Below are positions 1-20,686 of a stretch of DNA of 23,271 nt, in pieces (positions within the stretch are counted from its first letter, which is position 1; every line of letters starts with the position of its first letter). The DNA is from a virus (taxonomy: Duplodnaviria > Heunggongvirae > Uroviricota > Caudoviricetes), in the IMG/VR virus record IMGVR_UViG_2563366867_000008; one strand, written 5' to 3'. A program made the position numbers and the translations under genes. The notes below the pieces were generated by a model. The model searched no databases. It was not told where the DNA came from and saw only the letters and a list, made by a program, of their open reading frames with translations.

Positions 1-626
1 ATGAAGTGGATTGTGATTGATACAGTTATCCAGCCATCATGCGGAATATCTTTTTCAGTCATATGGAGTAAAATAAAATTAATAATCTGGTATCAATCGG
101 ATGCTTTCTTACCTCCTGAAAGTATATTTACACTGACTCACACAGGTATCATGCTCAATAACAAAGTGCTACCTGTAACCATTTACAACGTAGCACCATT
201 CAATAAAACATTCTGGAATTTAATCAAAAACAGCCAGGAATGTCCTACAAATACAGATAACGTATTGAATGAATGCTTTAATAACCGTTGCACTCTGCAA
301 ATATGTCCTTATGGACTAAAACAACAAAGTCCATAAGGAGTTTACTCACATCTGACAAAATCAATATAAACAGCCCCTCCGGAGAGGGGCTGGAGAGTGG
401 CGCTATGTGCCATTGCATGGTGCCGGGTGCCTCCCGGTGAATTCAGTACCAGCACCTGAATCCGCGATTATCCCATATACCTACTCGCTGATTGCCCCTC
501 CGCACAGGGGGATTCACCATGCCAGTTTCTTTTAACAAACTCCCCGCAAAACAGACAACTGTCAACCGTCTGAATTGTGAGACATTTAAAAAAAGGCCCG
601 CAAAAGCGAGCCGGGAAAAATAAGTC

Positions 627-703
627 TGGCGCGTTGTACTGGATTCGAACCAGTGACCGATTGCTTAGAAGGCAATTGCTCTGTCCGGTTGAGCTAACAA
701 CGC
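627..703 (-). tRNA. tRNA-Arg, anticodon UCU
   Basis: Reverse complement folds as cloverleaf: acceptor GCGTTGT/ACAACGC, D-stem GCTC/GAGC, anticodon stem ATTGC/GCAAT with loop CTTCTAA, T-loop TTCGAAT, 3' CCA; last gene of a tRNA trio resembling the ileZ-argN-argO cluster of lambdoid/Stx phages. Confidence 0.85.
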
Positions 704-716
704 AGGGTACAGATAA

Positions 717-793
717 TGGACCGCCATCGAGGACTCGAACCCCGCGCAACCAGCTTCGAAGGCTGGCGCTCTATCCTGATGAGCTAATGGCGG
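717..793 (-). tRNA. tRNA-Arg, anticodon UCG as read from sequence
   Basis: Reverse complement: acceptor CCGCCAT/ATGGCGG, D-stem GCTC/GAGC, anticodon stem CCAGC/GCTGG with loop CTTCGAA, T-loop TTCGAGT, 3' CCA. Confidence 0.75.
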
Positions 794-800
794 TATGTGA

Positions 801-876
801 TGGTGGCCCTTGCTGGATTTGAACCAGCGACCTGGCGATTATGAGTCGCTCGCTCTCACCACTGAGCTAAAGGGCC
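801..876 (-). tRNA. tRNA with CAU anticodon (Ile2/lysidine type or Met)
   Basis: Reverse complement: acceptor GGCCCTT/AAGGGCC, D-loop AGTGGTGA, anticodon loop CTCATAA, T-loop TTCAAAT, 3' ACCA; first gene of the trio. Confidence 0.85.
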
Positions 877-916
877 GGGAGCCGCATAATAACGACGCGT
901 AATTAATTCTTCAATA

Positions 917-1195
917 TCATCCGTTCTGGCTGACTAAATCCTGTACTTCCCGAACCGTCTGCTCAAAACGTTCAGTCTCCAGCTCAACGCCAATTGCACG
1001 ACGCCCGAGCGCCAGTGCCGCTTTCACTGTCGAACCCGACCCCATGAAAAAATCTGCAATCAGGTCACCCGGACGACTGCTAGCGCTGATTATCTGCTGC
1101 AGCATTTCTGCCGGTTTTTCGCACGGATGTTTCCCGGGATAGAACTGCACCGGTTTATGCGTCCAGACATCGGTATACGGCACCTGCGCCGTCAC
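917..1195 (-). pseudogene. DNA methyltransferase remnant (C-terminal SAM-binding half only)
   Basis: 92-aa ORF with HPCEKP...DLIADFFMGSGST motif typical of beta-class N6A/N4C MTases; no DPPY-containing N-terminal half; GTG start; frame runs upstream into the tR' hairpin with no ATG. Confidence 0.5.
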
Positions 1196-1253
1196 GCCAA
1201 AATACCGCCGCAGTCGGCATTCACAACCACCAGCGCATTTAACGTTCAGCCAT

Positions 1254-1277
1254 AAAAAAACCCGCTCGCGGCGGGTT
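1254..1277 (-). terminator. Rho-independent terminator downstream of Q (tR'-like)
   Basis: On minus strand: GC stem CCCGCCGCGAGCGGG followed by TTTTTTT; located ~70 nt after the Q stop, as expected for the short pR' transcript. Confidence 0.75.
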
Positions 1278-1346
1278 TAAGCTGTGTGGCGAAGTAACCA
1301 CTCTTAACATACTGACATACTTTTTGCGGACCGCACTAATCATTTT

Positions 1347-1742
1347 TTACTTTTTTAGCAGCCAGTCGTCCATCTCCAGTCTTACCCCCAGCACAGACAA
1401 ACATCCGTCAATAAACCCTTCGGCTATCTGCATCTCAATTCGTATTGCTTTTTCGCTTTTCTTTCTCGTCCTGGCTATCTGTCTTTTTGATATTCGCAAC
1501 AAATAATGAGCAATGAGAAGCGAATACTCCTCAGGTTTTTTCTGCTTCAGACGAGCAAGACAGTTTTCAATGATAAGTCCGTCATCATCGCAGCAGGCCG
1601 GACGTGGTTTAGTGGCAGATGGTAAAAGTCCTTTGAATCCGGCAGCGATCGGAGAATAGTCCACCCCGGTGTTACCACTTGCAGCCCATGCCCCCCAGCG
1701 TTCAAGAACCATCTGAATATCACGCATCAACTTTCTCCACAA
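1347..1742 (-). CDS. Late antiterminator Q-like protein
   Basis: 131 aa; resembles small Q antiterminators of lambdoid phages as I remember them; sits immediately upstream of the tR'-like terminator and tRNA trio. Confidence 0.55.
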   Translation of the reverse strand: MWRKLMRDIQMVLERWGAWAASGNTGVDYSPIAAGFKGLLPSATKPRPACCDDDGLIIENCLARLKQKKPEEYSLLIAHYLLRISKRQIARTRKKSEKAIRIEMQIAEGFIDGCLSVLGVRLEMDDWLLKK

Positions 1743-6494: not shown

Positions 6495-6685
6495 GGACGC
6501 ACCTCCGCCGTAGTTACGTATTTAACCGGGCTACCTTTCATTGAGATGGTTTCACACATCTCTGCCGCTTTCAGTTCCGCTGTTTTTCTGGATTTATAGC
6601 GACGGTGCCAGACAGATACATCCGTGCGAACTGATACATCGTTTCTGTATTCCGTAGTGGAGATGATGATTTCGTAACTAATCAT
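6491..6685 (-). CDS. Hypothetical protein
   Basis: 64-aa ORF translationally coupled on both sides. Confidence 0.4.
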   Translation of the reverse strand: MISYEIIISTTEYRNDVSVRTDVSVWHRRYKSRKTAELKAAEMCETISMKGSPVKYVTTAEVRP

Positions 6686-7245
6686 GGGCGAACCTCCTTG
6701 TCAGAACCATTCAGCCTAGAATCAACAAGTGCAGCGCCAAAAACAGCATCACCAACACGGTCGTACAGTTTGCTAGCCAGCGGAGATTCAACGGCCTTAA
6801 GCATTGGATAAAGCTGGCTTGTCCAGATTTGATGGATTTCACGCAAATGCAGGTATACGCCTCTGGCGTTTCGTGCGACAGCTGACATATCAGACGCATC
6901 GGCACCTGATAAACTCTTCTCCATCAGGTTAAAGGCGTTGATGTATGCCTCTTTGAACCGGGCAGCACGTTTACCCGTGAAACCCATAGCAAGAAATGCA
7001 AAACCGTCTCGTGTGATTTGATAGCAAGGGAGCTTGCGTGTACCGCCGTTCGGTTGATTTACCGAAATCGATGTCTCCGCAAAATTGCGGGCACAAAACT
7101 CTGGAGAACAATCCAAAATGCGAATCTTTTTCAGAACATCGTCATGACGTTTAGAGAAGAAGTCAGCAACAGCCAAAGAAGATGTAACAGCCTGACCATC
7201 AACGATGGCAATTTCAGGTTGAGAGAGGGTTGGGAGAGTAGTCAT
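6682..7245 (-). CDS. Rha-family phage regulatory protein (second copy); start uncertain
   Basis: Rha-like motif IAIVDGQAVTSSLAVADFFSKRHDDVLKKI begins ~10 aa after internal Met at 7245; the longest ORF extends to 7548 but that 100-aa extension covers a hairpin-rich, terminator-like region. Confidence 0.6.
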   Translation of the reverse strand: MTTLPTLSQPEIAIVDGQAVTSSLAVADFFSKRHDDVLKKIRILDCSPEFCARNFAETSISVNQPNGGTRKLPCYQITRDGFAFLAMGFTGKRAARFKEAYINAFNLMEKSLSGADASDMSAVARNARGVYLHLREIHQIWTSQLYPMLKAVESPLASKLYDRVGDAVFGAALVDSRLNGSDKEVRP

Positions 7246-7631
7246 AGTGACAGCCCCGGTAGTCAGTTTTTTAGAAAACTCACCACATGGGACGCCAATC
7301 ACAGAGGTGGTGAGACGTACAGGGTTGGCGTTACCGGAGACTACCGAACCCGGCCCGACCGAAGTCGGCCCTGTACGCCCCACCATAATTTGGGCGTAGC
7401 AATGCTCATGACACGAAAAAACCGCATGAGCGCGGTTATGCTCAGTAATCAATTTCAGGACGCCAATCCCGGCACCCGCTTTATAAGGTGCGGAGACAGT
7501 GTAACGTCCCGAAATTGCAGAATCAATATTTGGTCTTGAAATGATCATATAGCTGCTGATATCTTTAGAACTGTTCTTGGATGTTTCGGAGCCGTTTTAT
7601 GCGAAACAGCTCCCCGTTATTGATGTTGAGT

Positions 7632-12226: not shown

Positions 12227-12415
12227 ATGAACATTTATTTCAGAATAGTTATATCACTGGCAATTATCGCATGTATTTACGGATTGCTCGTCCCGTTTCT
12301 GATATCAATGAAGGATACGGTAGCGGTGATTTCTGGCTTTGCACTGACGTTTCTAACCCCGCCATGTATTTATACCATTTATAAGGGGCTTTCTTTCACT
12401 AAGGATAAAAGATGA
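12227..12415 (+). CDS. Small membrane protein (two predicted TM helices)
   Basis: 62 aa, hydrophobic; RBS AGGAGG; stop overlaps start of SPFH gene (ATGA). Confidence 0.6.
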   Translation: MNIYFRIVISLAIIACIYGLLVPFLISMKDTVAVISGFALTFLTPPCIYTIYKGLSFTKDKR

Positions 12416-13239
12416 AAAAAATTATTTTTTCTTTAGCCATTGTTCTGCCTGCCATTGGCCTTGTCGGTTGTGATCGTGTTGAGCCTGGTAATGTGGGCAT
12501 CAAAGTCAACAAACTTGGCGACGACAAAGGCGTCGGTGAAGTGGTCGGTGTTGGTCGCTACTGGACAGGCTGGAACACTGAAGTTTATATCTTCCCGACC
12601 TTTAAGCAGATGAAGACCTACGATGATCCATTCAGTTTCCAGATGAGCGATGGAACAACCATTGGTTACCACATCGGAGTAGCCTACAAGGTTGATCCAT
12701 CCAAAGTTACCACAGTCTTTCAGACCTACCGCAAAGGCGTGGACGACATTACCGACACCGACCTGCGCCAGAAGATAGCCGACGCACTCAACCGACTGGC
12801 CAGCAAAATGACCACCGACAAATTTATCGACGGCGGCAAGTCTGAGCTGCTGGATGCAGCTCTTAAAGACATTCAGGAAGAAATGACGCCCATCGGTATT
12901 CAGGTAATAAGCCTCTCATATGTGGGTAAGCCGGAGTACCCGCCTACTGTTATCGACAGCATTAATGCCAAAGTCACGGCGAACCAGAAAACTCTGCAAC
13001 GCGAGCAGGAAGTAAAACAGCGCGAAGCGGAAGCCAACATGTTGCGCGCGGAAGCTGCCGGACAGGCTGATGCGATTCGCACAAAAGCCCAGGCTGAAGC
13101 CGATGCTATTCGTTTACGCGGTGAAGCTCTGCGTCAGAACCCCGGTGTTATGGAGCTGGAAGCCATCAATAAATGGAACGGCACGCTGCCGCAATACATG
13201 ACCAGCGGTGCCAATACACCATTTATCCAGGTTAAATAA
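12412..13239 (+). CDS. SPFH/band-7 (prohibitin/stomatin-like) lipoprotein with C-terminal Ala/Glu-rich coiled coil
   Basis: 275 aa; signal peptide with lipobox LVGC; SPFH-like core; RBS AAGGA. Confidence 0.7.
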   Translation: MKKIIFSLAIVLPAIGLVGCDRVEPGNVGIKVNKLGDDKGVGEVVGVGRYWTGWNTEVYIFPTFKQMKTYDDPFSFQMSDGTTIGYHIGVAYKVDPSKVTTVFQTYRKGVDDITDTDLRQKIADALNRLASKMTTDKFIDGGKSELLDAALKDIQEEMTPIGIQVISLSYVGKPEYPPTVIDSINAKVTANQKTLQREQEVKQREAEANMLRAEAAGQADAIRTKAQAEADAIRLRGEALRQNPGVMELEAINKWNGTLPQYMTSGANTPFIQVK

Positions 13240-14376: not shown

Positions 14377-15690
14377 ATGGATAAAGTCAAATATCCAACA
14401 GGCGTCGAAAACCACGGCGGCACATTACGCATCTGGTTTAATTTTAAAGGTAAACGTGTCAGGGAAAATCTTGGTGTCCCTGACACTGCCAAGAACAGGA
14501 AGATCGCCGGGGAACTGCGGACATCAGTATGTTTTGCCATCCGCACAGGAAGCTTTGATTATGCTGCACAGTTCCCTGACTCCCCCAACCTTCAGGCTTT
14601 TGGGGTAAGTAAAAAAGAAATTACGGTGAAGGAACTTGAAGAAAAGTGGCTGGATCTGAAACGAATGGAAATCTCTGCAAATGCATTCAATCGCTATGAA
14701 TCCGTTGCAAGAACGATGGTTCCGAAAATTGGAGGCAGTAAACTGGTGTCATCGGTAACCAAAGAGGAATTGCTGTATATCAGGAAAGATTTGCTGACCG
14801 GGTATCAGAATTCAACGAAAAACAAAGCAGCAGCAAAAGGACGGAGCGTCGTTACTGTAAATTATTACATGACGACAATCGCTGGAATGTTTCAGTTTGC
14901 TGCAGATCACGGTTACTTAGAAGCAAATCCCTTCCAGGGAATTAAGCCTCTTAAAAGAGCCAGGGCAGAGCCAGATCCGCTAACTCGTGACGAATTTATT
15001 CGCCTGATAGATGCTTGCCGACATCAGCAGACGAAAAACCTGTGGTCATTGGCTGTGTACACAGGAATGCGTCACGGTGAACTGGTCTCCCTGGCCTGGG
15101 AAGATATCGATCTGAAGGCAGGAACAATTACCATCAGGCGCAATTATACGAAACTTGGTGAGTTCACTCTACCGAAAACTGAAGCAAGCACAAACAGGGT
15201 TGTGCACCTTATCCAGCCCGCTATCAGTGTCCTGAAAAATCAGGCTGAAATGACAAGACTGGGTAAGCAGTACAACATCAAGGTGCAACTACGTGAATAT
15301 GGACGTTCAGTGAACCATGAATGTACTTTCGTGTTTAACCCTCAAGTGGTTAGAAAAAGCGAACAGGTAGGTTTTGTCTACAAAGTCGATTCTGTAGGTG
15401 ACTCATGGGAAACAGCCATTAAGCGTGCAGGGATCAGGCATCGAAAGGCATACCAGTCACGACACACTTATGCGTGCTGGTCATTATCTGCCGGAGCAAA
15501 CCCAAGCTTCATTGCCAGCCAGATGGGCCATGCAAGTGCCCAGATGGTATTCAATGTATACGGAGCATGGATGACTGACAGCAATGCAGAACAGATCGCA
15601 ATGCTGAATCAGAAGCTGACAGATTATGTCCCAATGATGCCCCATAGTCACCAAAGTGACACCAGAGGCTTATTAAAATCAGTAAGTTAA
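14377..15690 (+). CDS. Tyrosine integrase (lambda Int family)
   Basis: 437 aa; RBS GGAGG; C-terminal catalytic region with R...HxxR...Y-type residues (RHTYACWSLSAGANPSFIASQMGHASAQMVFNVY); abuts disrupted host gene. Confidence 0.85.
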   Translation: MDKVKYPTGVENHGGTLRIWFNFKGKRVRENLGVPDTAKNRKIAGELRTSVCFAIRTGSFDYAAQFPDSPNLQAFGVSKKEITVKELEEKWLDLKRMEISANAFNRYESVARTMVPKIGGSKLVSSVTKEELLYIRKDLLTGYQNSTKNKAAAKGRSVVTVNYYMTTIAGMFQFAADHGYLEANPFQGIKPLKRARAEPDPLTRDEFIRLIDACRHQQTKNLWSLAVYTGMRHGELVSLAWEDIDLKAGTITIRRNYTKLGEFTLPKTEASTNRVVHLIQPAISVLKNQAEMTRLGKQYNIKVQLREYGRSVNHECTFVFNPQVVRKSEQVGFVYKVDSVGDSWETAIKRAGIRHRKAYQSRHTYACWSLSAGANPSFIASQMGHASAQMVFNVYGAWMTDSNAEQIAMLNQKLTDYVPMMPHSHQSDTRGLLKSVS

Positions 15691-15716
15691 TCCTTAATAC
15701 CCGTCATGTTAACTGC

Positions 15717-16118
15717 GTGGAGGGTAACACCACGCTTTATGCCCTGCCGAAACCCGAGGTTGTCCTGCGCTGGCGTGAGCAGACCACAGATGACTTCCGC
15801 TTCTGTTTTAAGTTTCCGGCGACCATTTCGCATCAGGCAGCATTACGGCATTGCGATGATTTAGTGACTGAATTTTTGACCCGCATGTCACCGTTGGCTC
15901 CGCGCATTGGACAATACTGGCTGCAACTGCCTGCCACATTCGGCCCACGGGAGCTGCCTGCGCTTTGGCATTTTCTCGATTCTCTTCCCGGTGAATTTAA
16001 TTATGGGGTGGAAGTCCGCCATCCACAGTTTTTCGCCAAAGGGGAAGAGGAACAAACGCTTAATCGCGGTTTACATCAGCGCGGCGTTAATCGGGTGATT
16101 TTTATTAGACACGTTTAA
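15717..16118 (+). pseudogene. Internal fragment of a DUF72-family (yecE-like) host gene, cut on both sides
   Basis: 133-aa frame with no proper start; EVRH-containing DUF72-like motifs; frame ends 5 codons after a sharp GC drop at ~16100; recognition of yecE is from memory. Confidence 0.45.
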
Positions 16119-16168
16119 ATACACCATCTAAAACGATACAATCTAGGGCATCAGTTTTGAGGTGAACA

Positions 16169-17692
16169 ATGAAACGTGCCATTTCTTACATCAGGTTTTC
16201 ATCTGAGAAGCAATCCCGAGGTGATTCATTACGCCGACAGTCTAAGATGGTTAATGACTGGCTTAAGGCTCATCCTGAGTACTACCTTGACCAAGATTTA
16301 TCTTTTCGTGATTTGGGGGTGAGTGGGTTCACTGGTAAGCACTTGAAAGGTGGCTTAGGTGACTTTTTAACCGCTATCGAGAAAGGGCTTGTTAAAGCTG
16401 GTGATACGCTCTTGATAGAATCTCTTGACCGTCTGTCACGTCAAGATGTAGACCAAGCAAGTGAGCTACTCAGAAACATTCTTCGCTCTGGTGTAGATGT
16501 GGTCACCTTGTCCGATGGTGAACATTACACAAAGGAAAGCTTAAAAGACCCGTTAGCTCTGATTAAAAGCATTTTGATAATGCAGCGGTCGCATGAGGAG
16601 AGTTTGCGTAAATCTGAACGTATCCAAGCTGCATGGGATGCAAAGAAAGAAGCTGCTAAAGCCGGTATCAAGATTTATAAGCGTTGTCCTGCATGGCTTA
16701 AGCTTAATGATGACCGTAAGACCTTCTCTGTGATACCTGAGAAGGTAGAAACTGTGAAGAGGTGCTTTCAATTACGGTTAGAGGGTAAGTCTATTTGGGA
16801 GATTGTCAGGACTCTTAATGATGAAGGTCACCAGACACTTAACCAGTACAAAGCAGGTAAGTTTGGTCAAACCTCAGTGCAAGACCTTCTGAAAAATCGC
16901 TCTGTAATTGGTTACTTCACACCTAAAGGCTGTGAGGAGATAGCTGGTTATTTCCCCCCTATCATCCCTGAGACTGATTTCTACAAAGTCCAGCAACTAT
17001 CATATTCTCGTTATGGAAGAAAGCCTGCTTCAGATAAACCATTGAGTGTGAATCTTTTCAAAGGTGTTATCCGTTGTTCTGAATGTGGTCATGCTTTGAT
17101 TATCACAGGCTTTAGCGATACAAGAAACGGGATTTATCGTTGTCCTCTTCGTAATGAAAACCGTTGTAGTGCTAAAGGACTTTCACGTAAGCAAACCGAT
17201 GGTACATTGCTTGCCCTGCTATCCCGTATAGACCGATTTGATAGCGATATGACGAATACCATAGACACACTGAAGCTACACCGTGAACACATCTCAAGCA
17301 ATATTGAAAAGCTGGTACAGCTATCACTTGAAATTGAAGACTTGTCCGCTATTACCAGCAAACTAAAACAGTTAAAAGGTGAGCTATCACAGGTTGATGC
17401 GGATATCGAGAAGGAGACACAACGCCTTAAATCTATTGATGTTGGTTGTTTGTCTGATTGTGACTTGACTACAAAGGCGGGAAGGATTGAAGCACAACTG
17501 ATAATCAAAAGTGCTGTTAAAGAGGTCATTTTAAATACTGCTAAACGTCGCTGTAAAGTAACTTTTCACAATAGTAAGTCAATCACCCTACCAATAACAG
17601 AAACCCCCTCAGAGGACGTTACAGAGGCTATACAGTCGCTTTCTGAAGTCACTGAGAGGGGGTTGATAGATGTTGATGAGGTTATCATATAG
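16169..17692 (+). CDS. Large serine recombinase (serine integrase)
   Basis: 507 aa; N-terminal resolvase catalytic motif AISYIRFSSEKQ...RQ, recombinase domain, Cys-rich zinc ribbon (CSECGH...YRCP...RC), C-terminal coiled coil; RBS GAGGTGA; candidate -10 TACAAT upstream. Confidence 0.85.
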   Translation: MKRAISYIRFSSEKQSRGDSLRRQSKMVNDWLKAHPEYYLDQDLSFRDLGVSGFTGKHLKGGLGDFLTAIEKGLVKAGDTLLIESLDRLSRQDVDQASELLRNILRSGVDVVTLSDGEHYTKESLKDPLALIKSILIMQRSHEESLRKSERIQAAWDAKKEAAKAGIKIYKRCPAWLKLNDDRKTFSVIPEKVETVKRCFQLRLEGKSIWEIVRTLNDEGHQTLNQYKAGKFGQTSVQDLLKNRSVIGYFTPKGCEEIAGYFPPIIPETDFYKVQQLSYSRYGRKPASDKPLSVNLFKGVIRCSECGHALIITGFSDTRNGIYRCPLRNENRCSAKGLSRKQTDGTLLALLSRIDRFDSDMTNTIDTLKLHREHISSNIEKLVQLSLEIEDLSAITSKLKQLKGELSQVDADIEKETQRLKSIDVGCLSDCDLTTKAGRIEAQLIIKSAVKEVILNTAKRRCKVTFHNSKSITLPITETPSEDVTEAIQSLSEVTERGLIDVDEVII

Positions 17693-17706
17693 TTGAGATT
17701 CTATCG

Positions 17707-18480
17707 TCAGAATCGCTTGTTAGGATTCACAGAAAATTTCTTCAAAGTACTACCTGTACCAGCATTATTAAGCACCTTTGAAGCTTGCGCATTAGCGGCA
17801 TCTGAGAAGGTGCTTTTTCCATTCTCAACTTTGACACTTTTACCACAATTGATACGGGCTTGAAGTTGCTCATTAGTGAGTTCACTCGTAGAGCGATTAT
17901 ATAGCTCCTGACACAGCAACATACCATTACCTAGACTTGTCGTAGTGTTACCAGTGTTCTTCTTAGAAGTTGCACCACCATCATTCGTGGTAGCAGTCTT
18001 TCCAGTTGCAGCAGAAATATCAGTCTGACCAACAATAGCTTTGAAGTTAATTTCCTGAAAAGTTAGCTGGATTCTTAGACCGTTTGAAATCCCCACATCT
18101 TTAGAGGCTTTAAAACTCGTAATAATGGAATCGTCAATTTTAATTCCGTCTTTACAGATGACCGAAATAATCTGTTTCTGGTCACGCCAGCTTTCAAGAG
18201 TGTCGATGAAGTTTTCTACTAATTGACCCTGACGAGTTAATAATAAGCTTCCTTCATAGCCAACTACAACGACACCACTAATAGTGATTGTTCTGGGTGC
18301 TCTTTGCACATTATCTGTAACGGTTTGTCCTGATTGCATGTTCTGTGTAGTCACCTGCATAGGACTATCAAATTCCATGTTTTCAGTTGCTGATAAGGTT
18401 AAGAAGGCATCTACATTATCTCTTAAGTGGAAATAGATGCCGTCTTTGCCACTATATTTGATTTGGTTAGAGTAAATCAT
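17707..18480 (-). CDS. Hypothetical protein with Thr/Gly-rich linker (possible tail-associated protein)
   Basis: 257 aa from internal ATG with RBS AAAGGGGA (ORF extends to 18501); follows the tape-measure-like gene; no domain recognised. Confidence 0.5.
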
Positions 18481-18555
18481 TAAATTCCCCTTTGATTTCA
18501 AAGGCTTAGTGTATTTTAATCATTTTTAACCAAGCCTTTGATATATAAGTGTTTT

Positions 18556-18626
18556 CTCTGTTAAGCGTGTTGTACGTAAATTCTATTTTTCAGTGTGGGT
18601 ATTAGCTTTACAGATTTCACGTAGCA
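18556..18626 (-). promoter_or_regulatory. Conserved cis-element, copy B (upstream of 264-aa gene)
   Basis: Blocks CTCTGTTAAGCGTG / TACGTAAA / GTGGGTAT / AGATTTCACGTAGCA shared with copy A at 20702-20772. Confidence 0.6.
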
Positions 18627-18637
18627 TTCGACTATTA

Positions 18638-20686
18638 TCAATCATCTTCTGGGAATGATGAACTTAATAGCGTAGCTTCTGCGTATTGGTCGTAGATATT
18701 ACTGCTAAAGGTCATAAAGCTGGTTTCATCTGGTTTAATGGCAACTTCACCACCAAGTGAAACTTTCACAGGCTCCTGAATACGTTTGCTCAAAGCACTA
18801 ATTTCATCTCTCAGGCTTTGGATATCCGTATTCGTTAATGCCGCATCTTGTCTCATGGTGATTAATTCTGGATGCTGGAAGTTAGCAAGATTCATAGCTG
18901 CACTATTAAACCAACCTTTCACATCGTCCATAGTAAATACTGGCTTAAGTCCAGATTCTTTAGCTAACTCTGGTAATTTAGCTTGTGCTTCCATTCGTTC
19001 AGGTGTAGAGGCTAGTCTTTCATAACCTGCATAGAGAGCGCTACCAGCTAATAGCATATTCCCAAGATTCAGTCTTGATGGTTTCCCATTCTTTCTATTC
19101 ACGTTATCCGCTGTAGTATCAGCAACCTGACCTAATCTTGTGATAGCAGTCATAAGCCCGTAAATACTTCTGGTTACACCAACAACTTTATTTACAGCAA
19201 TAACACCAGCCAAGACTTTTAAACTATTAATCAAGCCAGAACCTAAAGCATCAACAACTTTCTTTTGTTCATCGGTTAAACCACGATAAGCTAATGTCAC
19301 CTCATCAAAGAACGCTCGCACCTTGTAACTAATATCGGCCAGACTATCGACACCATGTGACATATCAGTCATCAAGCTACCAAGAGATTCACCAAGACTT
19401 TTACCACTTCCACCAAGAGCGTTTAAAAGCGTTGTTAAGCTTCTTGTAAAATCTTGCAGACCACTTTCAGAACCTCTGAAGATACTATCAAGCGTGGTAT
19501 TCCAAGAGTTTTTCAGGTTCCCTAATTGTGCCTGTGTACTTTCTGAAATAGCTTTCCAGCCACCTTTAGCGGTGATTTGTCTATTCAGTTCCTGAGTGAC
19601 CTTCTGAAGAGTATCGGCAGATTTTAAAGCCCCCTTCTTCATGGCATCAAATAATTCCTGTTCAGTCTTTCCGGTTGCTTTAGCGAATACCTGAACCATA
19701 CCAGGAACAGCTTCAGCTAGTTGCCCCTTAAGCTCTTCAGCCATAACCTGACCCTTACCAGCCATCTGTGATAATGCTGTCAGTGCTCGCTTAATCTCTT
19801 CTTCACTTCGACCCATCAGACGAGAATAGCCAATCATACTTCTAAAAAGTTCTTCAGAACCTTGAATACCCATAGACTCTTTAGCTGAAGCACCGAAACC
19901 AGCAAACTGTGATTGCAGTTCAGCGATATCTAAACCCGTTGTTTGAGCTAATGACTTTGTGAACTCTTTTACCTGACCTGCATCTTTATCAAATACGAAA
20001 TCAATTGAACGTTCAGCACTTGCACGCTGTAAACCAATTTCCATTACTCGCTGATAAGCTGCCAAAGCACTTTGAAAAGTGTAAATAGCCGTACCCGCTT
20101 TAATTGCACTTGAAGCTAGTACATCTAAACCATTTGAAGCATTTTCACTGTGATTATTTTTGCTGGTGGTCTTGTTAAACTTAGAAAGTGTTTCACGTAG
20201 ATTTTGATTTAACTTTGCTAACTCACGATTAAAAGCTTCGTTTCCAAGTGTCTTGGATTTACTACTTAATGCGTAAAACTGACTCTTAATGTATTTCTCG
20301 ACAATTGGGTTAAGACCTTTCAGCTTAGACATATTCGCTGAATAAGCCGCTGTGATTGCTCTGTTGCCGCTAATTCGTGGCTGTCTTGGCTGTCTAAGTG
20401 GCTTTAAAGTATCCTCAATTTCCGTTTTAATCTTAAACGCTCTAGTGTTTTTAAGACGCTGCTCAATCTTGTCAAAGGTCTTATTAAACTTCCTTTCAAG
20501 TTGCCCTAAAGAACTTGTCAGATTGCTGTCAAGTTGCTTGGTATCGACCTTAAACGCTCTATTCAAATTACGTTCAATTCTTTGTGCTGACTGCAAAGCT
20601 GCCTTTTCAACTCTTTGCAAGCCCTTAATAACGTTCTCGCTGAAGCCTAGCTCAACGATAAAACTATCAACTTTAAATTGTGCCAT
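18638..20686 (-). CDS. Phage tail tape-measure-like protein
   Basis: 682 aa, largely alpha-helical/coiled-coil; central LSQMAGKGQVMAEELKGQLAEAVPGMVQVFAKATGKTEQELFDAMKKGAL segment matches the tape-measure core motif as I remember it. Confidence 0.65.
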   Translation of the reverse strand: MAQFKVDSFIVELGFSENVIKGLQRVEKAALQSAQRIERNLNRAFKVDTKQLDSNLTSSLGQLERKFNKTFDKIEQRLKNTRAFKIKTEIEDTLKPLRQPRQPRISGNRAITAAYSANMSKLKGLNPIVEKYIKSQFYALSSKSKTLGNEAFNRELAKLNQNLRETLSKFNKTTSKNNHSENASNGLDVLASSAIKAGTAIYTFQSALAAYQRVMEIGLQRASAERSIDFVFDKDAGQVKEFTKSLAQTTGLDIAELQSQFAGFGASAKESMGIQGSEELFRSMIGYSRLMGRSEEEIKRALTALSQMAGKGQVMAEELKGQLAEAVPGMVQVFAKATGKTEQELFDAMKKGALKSADTLQKVTQELNRQITAKGGWKAISESTQAQLGNLKNSWNTTLDSIFRGSESGLQDFTRSLTTLLNALGGSGKSLGESLGSLMTDMSHGVDSLADISYKVRAFFDEVTLAYRGLTDEQKKVVDALGSGLINSLKVLAGVIAVNKVVGVTRSIYGLMTAITRLGQVADTTADNVNRKNGKPSRLNLGNMLLAGSALYAGYERLASTPERMEAQAKLPELAKESGLKPVFTMDDVKGWFNSAAMNLANFQHPELITMRQDAALTNTDIQSLRDEISALSKRIQEPVKVSLGGEVAIKPDETSFMTFSSNIYDQYAEATLLSSSFPEDD

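Follow-up and report, generated by a model that had tools for sequence, protein, structure and literature searches.

A small RNA gene and iraM beside an unoccupied toxin slot at the late-operon entry of a probable stx-negative, Stx2-phage-like prophage

A late antiterminator gene followed by three tRNA genes and no toxin gene raises the question of what, if anything, stands in the place of the missing cargo, and whether such a locus is unusual. We addressed this question in a window of 23,271 nt (the whole stretch of DNA analyzed, IMG/VR record IMGVR_UViG_2563366867_000008, from a Caudoviricetes virus), to which all positions refer unless another locus is named. The source scaffold, KE136862.1 of an Escherichia coli assembly (GCA_000408065.1), shows identity to the window over 10336 bp, and an integrase together with a DUF72 fragment was found, as in a related locus (L006), in agreement with integration at yecE.

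Results

Layout of the locus

Read along the minus strand, the locus comprises a Q21-family gene, a leader with a hairpin, the 3′ third of a methyltransferase gene, the promoter pT, three tRNA genes, a terminator and an STnc100-family small RNA gene, toward which iraM converges from the plus strand. In phage Stx2_EH2201, the order is Q, a 198-bp ORF, the methyltransferase gene, the tRNA trio, stx2AB, STnc100, iraM, an esterase gene and the holin gene, such that the window order is that of Stx2_EH2201 minus stx2AB and minus a deleted segment of 1.2 kb. The 933W annotations pR′, pT, ileZ, argN, argO and the pre-stx terminator all map onto features of the window, and alignment with 933W-type phages shows the same architecture, namely Q, tR′-like hairpin, methyltransferase fragment and ileZ-argN-argO. 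The region, we conclude, is very probably where the late operon is entered in a lambdoid prophage that resembles Stx2 phages, lacks stx and sits at yecE of E. coli. All of its components and their arrangement have already been described, and the layout is ordinary. Nearly every feature listed in an earlier, sequence-only reading of this DNA is present; what did not hold is its view of the cargo region as empty or unusual.

A small RNA gene and iraM beyond the tRNA genes

Below position 627, that reading had seen no convincing minus-strand ORF, only AT-rich sequence and a cluster of hairpins. No credible minus-strand ORF is indeed found there, and the stretch holds two genes of other kinds. The hairpins belong to a full-length gene on the minus strand (362-551) of the STnc100 small RNA family, which includes EcOnc27, sRNA103 and PasD (PMC12711010, PMC7873438, bioRxiv 10.64898/2026.05.13.724894); a further terminator lies at 612-595. 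The match to Rfam RF02076 reaches 133.6 bits, against a gathering score of 47, and covers model positions 1-206 of 206. The terminator scan places a terminator of its own at 392-371, and the predicted fold has an energy of -74.6 kcal/mol with a z-score of -2.17. The 5′ end is uncertain, with a TTGACA at 565-560 that is without a good -10 element at the usual spacing, and an extended -10-like TGTTAAAAG that would set the start near 522. Small ORFs called over 407-532 by annotation pipelines fall inside the small RNA gene and should be corrected.

EcOnc27 (sRNA103) is an Hfq-binding small RNA located 3′ of stx2B, a demonstration limited to the copies of Sp5 and EDL933 (PMC7873438, PMC12711010). 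We found STnc100 directly after stx2B in Stx2_14040 (L003 3844-4058) and in 933W (L004 4778-4983). The 933W copy scores 207.7 bits, higher than that of the window, and the two differ in the 5′ ~30 nt and in the central loop; the targets of the window copy probably differ from those of its 933W counterpart. A permissive Rfam scan for the AsxR/AgvB partner (RF02703, RF02702) gave no match in 1-1500, even at E values up to 1, while AsxR is present in 933W (L004 4985-5037). The idea that AsxR is a relic of the iraM 3′ end was rejected, there being no similarity between them.

The second gene (1-336, plus strand), which accounts for the AT-rich sequence, is complete and encodes a 111-aa protein of the IraM anti-adaptor family. 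Its identity was settled by the NCBIfam model NF007393 (162.4 bits, cutoff 121, residues 1-110), a Pfam scan of the protein having returned no match. IraM and IraL are anti-adaptors of RssB, and iraM is horizontally acquired and prophage-associated (PMC4045071). With a GC content of 35.5%, the gene of the window is an AT-rich accessory gene converging on the late operon; IraM is annotated in three related loci (L001, L005 and L019), and the exact protein occurs in 8242 blocks of the assembly collection. An inverted repeat read from the sequence, CCTTATGGACT...AGTCCATAAGG, lies over the last iraM codons (306-337). It is not followed by a T run and was not called by the terminator scan, and it may represent the 3′ end of the iraM transcript. 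As a side observation, AUA accounts for 6 of the 13 Ile codons of iraM, and rare Arg codons are absent; a link between this codon use and the accessory tRNAs described below is suggestive, not more.

Upstream of the window, KE136862.1 carries a second STnc100 copy, followed by holin, lysozyme, terminase and capsid genes, with no stx. This upstream context rests on scaffolding, because a gap of 10 N lies 173 bp upstream of the window. The join at ~414, where iraM plus the 3′ portion of STnc100 meets a remainder resembling phage PhiR49_2, could be an assembly chimera created from the two STnc100 copies in a short-read scaffold. Besides the nearby gap, this would fit with the second copy being identical to window 414-544, with the homology to PhiR49_2 and to many genomes ending exactly at 414, and with the order holin, STnc100, iraM, STnc100 being absent from complete genomes. 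We nevertheless consider a chimera improbable. In closed genomes, iraM, STnc100, the terminator and the tRNA trio follow one another without interruption, EC08 matching window 1-894 at 99% and strain 100416 matching window 1-1212 at 95%. Because closed genomes show this contiguous run, and the gap lies outside the window, the arrangement within the window is taken as natural.

The stx slot is unoccupied

With Stx2A and Stx2B as tblastn queries, no match was obtained in the window or the adjoining upstream 10 kb, in agreement with the earlier claim that no toxin gene is present, and the phage is accordingly not classed as Stx-converting. A tblastn search of the same sequence likewise revealed no nanS-p esterase gene. 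In Stx2 phages, stx2AB lies exactly between the post-argO terminator and STnc100. Sequences flanking stx2AB align on either side of approximately 579-589, which we describe as an unoccupied cargo slot and which is uninterrupted in the window. The same slot is occupied by stx2AB (1335 bp) in 933W, Stx2_14040 and Stx2_EH2201, and by a cassette of ~640 bp with a DUF3927 ORF in the related loci L008-L017. Moreover, in phages of both the Stx2a and the Stx2c type, stx2B is followed immediately by the STnc100-iraM module, with iraM annotated as such in Stx2_EH2201.

This stx-free form is common. The argO-STnc100 junction is contiguous, with no stx between, in roughly one in five complete E. coli genomes (1033/5426), and iraM, STnc100 and argO form a run in 1119 of the same 5426. 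The proposal that cargo is absent or displaced thus stands as regards stx, but not as an oddity, since the slot region holds STnc100 and iraM and the layout is frequent. Likewise, the discovery of stx just outside the window had been put forward as what would make this a standard arrangement; none was found on the source scaffold, and the arrangement is standard all the same, because it is the common stx-free form.

Within the window, the stx2AB flanks of 933W, Stx2_14040 and Stx2_EH2201 abut within a few bases, as they would in a former Stx2-converting phage that lately lost stx2AB by precise deletion. Such an origin would agree with the 97-99% identity of the Q-to-tR′ segment to Stx2a phages, with the use of the yecE site by related prophages too, and with a 5-nt ATCTG found at both cassette ends in 933W, a repeat that is nonetheless too short to weigh. 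We regard it as quite improbable, given the 1033 complete genomes that share the stx-free junction and the small RNA flank, which is 72-82% identical to the Stx2-phage copies versus 99-100% to those of stx-free prophages. In addition, the ~640-bp cassette uses the same slot, which points to a general exchange point. The present data would fit gain as well as loss of stx, and the description as a stx-negative, Stx2-phage-like prophage is the one that we retain.

Q gene, leader hairpin and methyltransferase remnant

The gene recognized earlier as Q-like (1347-1727, minus strand; 381 bp, 126 aa, with an upstream TTG at 1742) encodes a late antiterminator of the Q21 family. The protein aligns with the whole of PF06530 (profile positions 1-118 of 118, E = 1.6e-52) and resembles the Q21 structures PDB 6P18 and 6JNX (E = 7.5e-8), and the gene is annotated as Q in L001-L003. 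The adjacent segment (1279-1346, minus strand) is the predicted late promoter and leader region. In alignments, it shows a single mismatch to the Stx2a phage Stx2_14040 and partial homology to the 933W pR′ leader. The position of pR′ is given by homology only, because promoter scans of the leader region revealed no confident sigma-70 consensus and no convincing -35/-10 pair.

Consistent with the tR′-like terminator proposed before, the terminator scan detects an intrinsic-terminator-like hairpin of 8 pairs with a T7 tail on the minus strand (1258-1278). Its homolog in 933W is the first of the annotated terminators (L004 2727-2749), at about +27 to +49. The promoter PR′, tR′ and the tRNA promoter have been mapped in phage Sp5 (PMC7547250), and the mapped tR′ of Sp5 and 933W is the second terminator, at +258 from PR′ (PMC7547250). 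By analogy, the hairpin would be the functional tR′ of this phage, a label that stays conditional because the hairpin matches the first 933W hairpin and not the mapped tR′. No StxS homolog was found in the window, where conservation of the 933W leader is confined to its initial ~50 nt and first hairpin and the StxS-short region is absent. Rfam matches to Trp_leader and isrK at 1252-1344 (E values of 0.17-0.36, far under thresholds) were dismissed as terminator-driven noise.

Beyond the hairpin lies the 3′ third of an N6/N4 DNA methyltransferase gene (917-1212, minus strand), a partial match to PF01555. Its ORF (1195-917, 92 aa) matches only positions 137-220 of 221 of this profile, while the full-length enzyme has 349 aa in the related locus L001. 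The fragment retains the FMGSGST AdoMet-binding motif and is without the catalytic DPPY motif, which lies in the deleted part, such that DPPY and FxGxG, taken together as the mark of PF01555 membership, do not both occur. Its frame is open upstream as far as a TAA within the terminator stem, as expected from the earlier description of a truncated gene whose upstream frame runs into the terminator. The suspected recombination scar also proved real, in the form of a deletion at 1213-1244, with a junction at 1213-1215 and, near 1242-1244, 3 nt replacing a 15-nt stretch. The missing ~1.2 kb (L001 7214-8396), which comprises the 198-bp ORF and 254 methyltransferase codons, can be seen in E. coli 100416 as well as in Stx2a phages; phage PhiR49_2 shares the deletion junction, as do 82 of 5426 complete E. 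coli genomes. The remnant is probably a pseudogene, and we propose that the “methylase” ORF be reannotated as a fragment predicted to be catalytically dead. It is very unlikely that the 92-aa fragment is a functional small protein kept by selection, for instance as an AdoMet-binding or regulatory domain, for although its ORF is intact from a GTG start, retains the AdoMet motif and is conserved in the 82 genomes and in PhiR49_2 (there labeled a methylase), it lacks both DPPY and the first 136 profile positions, no clear ribosome-binding site precedes the GTG, and 933W holds an even shorter methyltransferase piece of ~110 bp, which fits progressive decay beside the pT promoter.

The tRNA genes and their flanking signals

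A promoter scan identified a promoter-like site for the tRNA genes on the minus strand (886-914), composed of TTGAAG, a 17-nt spacer and TATTAT, and pT of 933W (L004 3083-3111) aligns with 914-886 as its positional homolog. The three genes that follow on the minus strand form cloverleafs with the anticodons CAU, UCG and UCU, in this order and in close identity to the 933W genes, which confirms the ileZ-argN-argO trio. The first (801-876; Rfam tRNA, 72.5 bits) is identical to 933W ileZ at 76/76 positions and to K-12 ileX at 68/76. ARAGORN calls it tRNA-Met, and NCBI PGAP calls it tRNA-Ile in L001, L006 and L019. It contains the pairs C4-G69 and C5-G68, which are reportedly the TilS determinants of CAU tRNA-Ile2. 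Judged from its sequence, this CAU tRNA is a tRNA-Ile2 of the ileX type, predicted to be lysidine-modified, and not a tRNA-Met. The second, an argN-type tRNA-Arg with anticodon UCG (717-793), and the third, an argO-type tRNA-Arg with anticodon UCU (627-703), were both called by ARAGORN; they score 56 and 70.1 bits with the Rfam tRNA model and share 74/77 and 75/77 positions with 933W argN and argO, respectively. The UCG anticodon, previously singled out, is normal for argN, as 933W argN has the same TCG and the Stx2a phage Stx2_14040 (L003) the same anticodons. The trio is followed by an intrinsic terminator on the minus strand (595-612; GGCTCGCTTTTGCGGGCC then T7), homologous to the one annotated upstream of the stx genes in 933W. 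A literature search on ileZ, argN and argO returned only unrelated papers.

Discussion

Based on the biology of 933W, Sp5 and lambda, we propose the following regulatory scheme. In the lysogenic state, dedicated promoters would serve the tRNAs, the small RNA and iraM, and transcription begun at pR′ would halt at the hairpin. The pT promoter would drive the trio, providing Ile2-CAU for AUA, Arg-UCG for CGA and CGG, and Arg-UCU for AGA and AGG. Upon induction, Q would render RNA polymerase resistant to termination, and the modified polymerase would read past the hairpin and the terminators of the tRNA and small RNA genes, then antisense over iraM and into the lysis and head genes. IraM would block RssB, leading to stabilization of RpoS, and the small RNA would act on host targets via Hfq.

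The distribution of homology around the small RNA gene raises the further question of how cargo moves in and out of this region. Among 18 related loci, homology breakpoints cluster at 366-372, 414, 544-547 and 584-592, the last cluster being the slot that holds stx2AB or the DUF3927 cassette. On the source scaffold, iraM is flanked by two direct STnc100 copies sharing 131 identical bases, and PhiR49_2, in which iraM is missing and the single small RNA gene is a hybrid, resembles what recombination between two such copies would leave behind. Tentatively, and at rather low confidence, we suggest that the conserved core of STnc100 and the short spacer to the tRNA terminator might serve as portable homology for late-region cargo swaps among lambdoid prophages. 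If true, the transfer of stx and iraM among phages whose backbones carry unlike Q types would be explained in part by the small RNA gene, and a possible role of STnc100 repeats in cargo exchange is a modest lead for work on phage mosaicism. As a discovery, the locus itself carries little weight; it provides a clean example of an unoccupied stx insertion slot, and shows that in stx-free prophages the space after the trio harbors a known small RNA gene together with an accessory gene expected to stabilize RpoS, rather than junk.

The Stx2a phages 933W and Sp5 carry Q, pR′, tR′, pT, ileZ-argN-argO, stx2AB, STnc100 (EcOnc27), AsxR, the nanS-p esterase gene, S, R and Rz. The window has the same order and orientation, with STnc100 in the same relative place; compared with 933W, ileZ is identical, argN and argO are 96-97% identical, pT and the post-argO terminator are homologous, and the last ~110 bp of the methyltransferase gene are shared. 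Unlike in these phages, stx2AB, AsxR and a StxS-short homolog are missing, iraM takes the position of AsxR, and the source scaffold shows no esterase gene upstream; the Q gene is also distant from that of 933W (~63% DNA identity). Closer in layout are Stx2_EH2201 (Stx2a) and the Stx2c phages 2851 and 1717, which display the arrangement of the window with the slot filled, i.e., Q (381 bp), the 198-bp ORF, methyltransferase, trio, stx2, STnc100 and a convergent iraM. They differ from it in the presence of stx2AB, in a full-length methyltransferase gene and in an iraM-STnc100 module that is 71-83% identical to that of the window. PhiR49_2 (from ECOR13) and the yecE prophages of ExPEC are 99-100% identical over window 414-1400 and beyond, a stretch that includes the scar in the methyltransferase gene, the tRNA genes and the 5′ portion of STnc100, whereas they are without iraM, their holin gene comes directly after STnc100, and the homology stops at 414 or 372. 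Finally, the iraM gene has its promoter outside the window, and may be under PhoP control, as K-12 iraM is, or be expressed in log phase, as is iraL. It resembles its counterparts at the K-12 e14 prophage (IraM) and in CFT073 (IraL) in being a horizontally acquired, prophage-associated gene, and its product passes the NCBIfam IraM model; unlike K-12 e14 iraM and CFT073 iraL, it sits beside tRNA genes in a lambdoid late region.

Gene order downstream of Q

All the features that the sequence-only reading had listed (a Q gene, a hairpin, a methyltransferase remnant and a tRNA trio) were recovered by profile matches, a terminator scan and tRNA calls. On the minus strand, a DUF968 (ydfU-like) gene (2764-1745) is followed by a Q gene of 126 aa (1727-1347), which matches PF06530 over its full length (E 1.6e-52) and the Q21 structures 6P18 and 6JNX (E 7.5e-8), and then by a hairpin with a T7 tail (1278-1258, terminator scan), a methyltransferase remnant ORF (1195-917), a promoter-like site (914-886, promoter scan) and tRNA genes with the anticodons CAT (876-801), TCG (793-717) and TCT (703-627). 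Further along the same strand lie a second intrinsic terminator (612-595, terminator scan) and the STnc100 small RNA gene (551-362), which matches the Rfam family over its full length (133.6 bits; gathering score 47) and has a terminator of its own (392-371, terminator scan). Convergent with the minus-strand genes is iraM, a complete 111-aa ORF on the plus strand (1-336; NCBIfam IraM model 162.4 bits, cutoff 121). At the level of sequence, the parts and their order are thus established.

In phage Sp5, tR' was mapped by Sy et al. at +258 from PR' (PMC7547250), equivalent to the second of the terminators annotated in 933W; the window hairpin at 1278-1258 has its homologue in the first 933W hairpin (~+27 to +49). 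Sequence comparison revealed no counterpart of the StxS-short region in the window, and promoter scans of the window gave no placement for a pR' consensus. The hairpin can fairly be called tR'-like, and it may serve as the functional late terminator of this phage.

A cargo slot without stx

In 933W and in the Stx2a phages Stx2_14040 and Stx2_EH2201, the terminator after argO forms the left flank of stx2AB and the sequence just upstream of STnc100 its right flank; in the window, these two flanks meet at ~579-589. STnc100 directly follows stx2B in Stx2_14040 and 933W, in agreement with published work on Stx2 phages, which places it ~75 nt after stx2 and overlapping the Hfq-binding small RNA EcOnc27 (sRNA103) (PMC12370729, PMC12711010, PMC7873438). 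As the earlier reading had stated, the window holds no toxin gene: tblastn with Stx2A and Stx2B gave no match in it. The suggestion that absent or displaced cargo is unusual did not hold, since the stx-free form is common: of 5426 complete E. coli genomes, 1033 have the junction uninterrupted (191-nt probe spanning it, coverage at least 80% per genome), and 1119 cover the longer run of iraM, STnc100 and argO. In other prophages, the same slot is filled by a cassette of ~640 bp with a DUF3927 ORF. Judged from these alignments, the site is a general cargo slot, unoccupied here.

Sequence just outside the window was examined for stx on the source scaffold, KE136862.1 (assembly GCA_000408065.1), reached through an exact match of the IraM protein; the scaffold agrees with the window at each of the 10336 bases compared. 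Upstream of the window it carries 173 bp, a gap of 10 N and a second STnc100 copy ending at that gap (L016 9625-9827 on the scaffold, 173-375 bp upstream; 138.3 bits; 131 bases identical to window 414-544), then holin, YdfR, lysozyme, Rz, terminase, portal and capsid genes. Neither stx nor an esterase was found by tblastn in the 10 kb upstream on the scaffold, and the presence of stx just outside the window, which would have refuted the earlier reading, is therefore not borne out.

On the scaffold, iraM is thus bracketed by direct small RNA repeats. Since the order holin, STnc100, iraM, STnc100 is absent from the closed E. coli genomes searched, this join, at a repeat with a gap, may be a scaffolding artefact. 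Closed genomes do support the order within the window: EC08 matches window 1-894 at 99%, and strain 100416 matches 1-1212 at 95%. Homology breakpoints of related loci are concentrated at the 584-592 slot and, in STnc100, at the core and the ends of the gene; given this clustering and the two copies bracketing iraM on the scaffold, the STnc100 gene may act as a recombination anchor for cargo exchange, an only mildly new lead.

iraM and STnc100

Two genes, iraM (35.5% GC) and one for a small RNA, make up what had been described as AT-rich sequence with a hairpin cluster. AUA, which the neighbouring ileZ tRNA reads, accounts for six of the 13 Ile codons in iraM. The window allele encodes 111 aa, against 107 codons (324 bp) in Stx2_EH2201 and 107 aa for IraM of K-12, and the extra codons fall in an inverted repeat at 306-337.

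PGAP annotates an "incomplete hypothetical protein" pseudogene over 407-532 (plus), as it does in strain 100416, E. coli JKHS016 and comparison locus L019; lying antisense within the STnc100 gene, it is most likely an annotation artefact. Two tandem STnc100 copies lie between the tRNAs and the lysis genes in comparison locus L005 (5362-6019) and in JKHS016 (L006 5506-6183), so STnc100 copy number varies among loci.

The tRNA trio

The CAT tRNA is identical to 933W ileZ at 76/76 positions and to K-12 ileX at 68/76, and it retains the pairs C4-G69 and C5-G68, which work by Ikeuchi and colleagues in 2005 reportedly showed to be determinants for the lysidine-forming enzyme TilS. Because of its identity to ileZ, its likeness to ileX and the presence of both pairs, we assign it as the AUA-reading tRNA-Ile2, not a tRNA-Met. 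The TCG and TCT tRNAs match 933W argN and argO at 74/77 and 75/77 positions, respectively. The UCG anticodon, singled out earlier as odd, is the rule for the trio, since the same three anticodons occur in Stx2_14040 and two stx-free relatives.

At position 37 of argO (window 666), the base 3' of UCU, the window has A and 933W argO (L004 3296-3372) has G. An A at position 37 is the usual site of t6A modification; the oddity belongs to 933W argO, not to the window gene.

A deletion in the methyltransferase gene

Between the hairpin and the tRNAs, strain 100416 and Stx2a phages carry a 198-bp ORF and a methyltransferase of 349-352 aa. The window aligns with strain 100416 (L001) at 1-1212 and again from 1245 on, L001 7214-8396 being absent, and the deletion junction lies at window 1213-1215. 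The ~95 codons left match only positions 137-220 of 221 of PF01555, the last third of this N6/N4 profile, with the AdoMet motif FMGSGST kept and the catalytic DPPY motif gone. A frame without a start codon does extend from the remnant into the terminator stem, as had been noticed. Phage PhiR49_2 shares this scar, as do 82 of the 5426 complete E. coli genomes, and 933W retains a still shorter piece, equivalent to window 1027-917. A weak terminator-like hairpin, TGCCGACTGCGGCG then GTATTTTGG, lies exactly across the junction (1206-1219, minus) and is probably fortuitous.

Proposed working of the region

By analogy with 933W, Sp5 and lambda, in a lysogen pT would drive the tRNAs as far as the terminator at 612-595, STnc100 and iraM would be transcribed independently, and pR' transcripts would stop at the hairpin. 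In 933W, pT is an annotated promoter, and in Sp5 a transcription start for the tRNAs has been mapped (PMC7547250). After induction, Q-modified polymerase would pass all three terminators, transcribe across iraM in antisense and then enter the lysis and morphogenesis genes. By blocking RssB, IraM would increase RpoS levels (PMC4045071), and the STnc100 small RNA would act through Hfq.

Other modules of the prophage

At 7303-7491 (minus), Rfam matches to C4 antisense RNA (82.3 bits) and isrK (59.3 bits) lie just upstream of an Ash/Rha-domain ORF (6682-7548), together forming a P1/P7-type antirepressor immunity module in a lambdoid prophage; the module also occurs in strain 100416, in comparison locus L002 and, twice, in JKHS016. 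A tyrosine integrase gene (14377-15690) adjoins a yecE (DUF72) fragment (15717-16118). Directly after this fragment comes a second element, which encodes a large serine recombinase (16169-17692), a Dit-like tail protein and a tape-measure protein. Over this stretch (14377-20686), yecE appears to harbour two elements in tandem, an arrangement also seen in JKHS016. In the early-left region, the gene at 12412-13239 (plus) encodes an SPFH/Band 7 domain protein (PF01145, E 2.9e-31) and may be an accessory or defence gene.

Comparison with Stx phages

Among versions with an occupied slot, the Stx2a phage Stx2_EH2201 is the closest, with Q, the 198-bp ORF, the methyltransferase, the tRNA trio, stx2A, stx2B, STnc100, iraM (so annotated), esterase and holin. 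This STnc100 and iraM module also occurs, at ~71% identity, in Stx2c phages, among them 2851 and 1717. Phage 933W differs in its type of Q, in having a 258-nt StxS leader, unlike the window, and in carrying AsxR, convergent with STnc100, at the position of iraM. The region is a well-described phage module in its common stx-free form, and every component of the module has already been named in databases and the literature.
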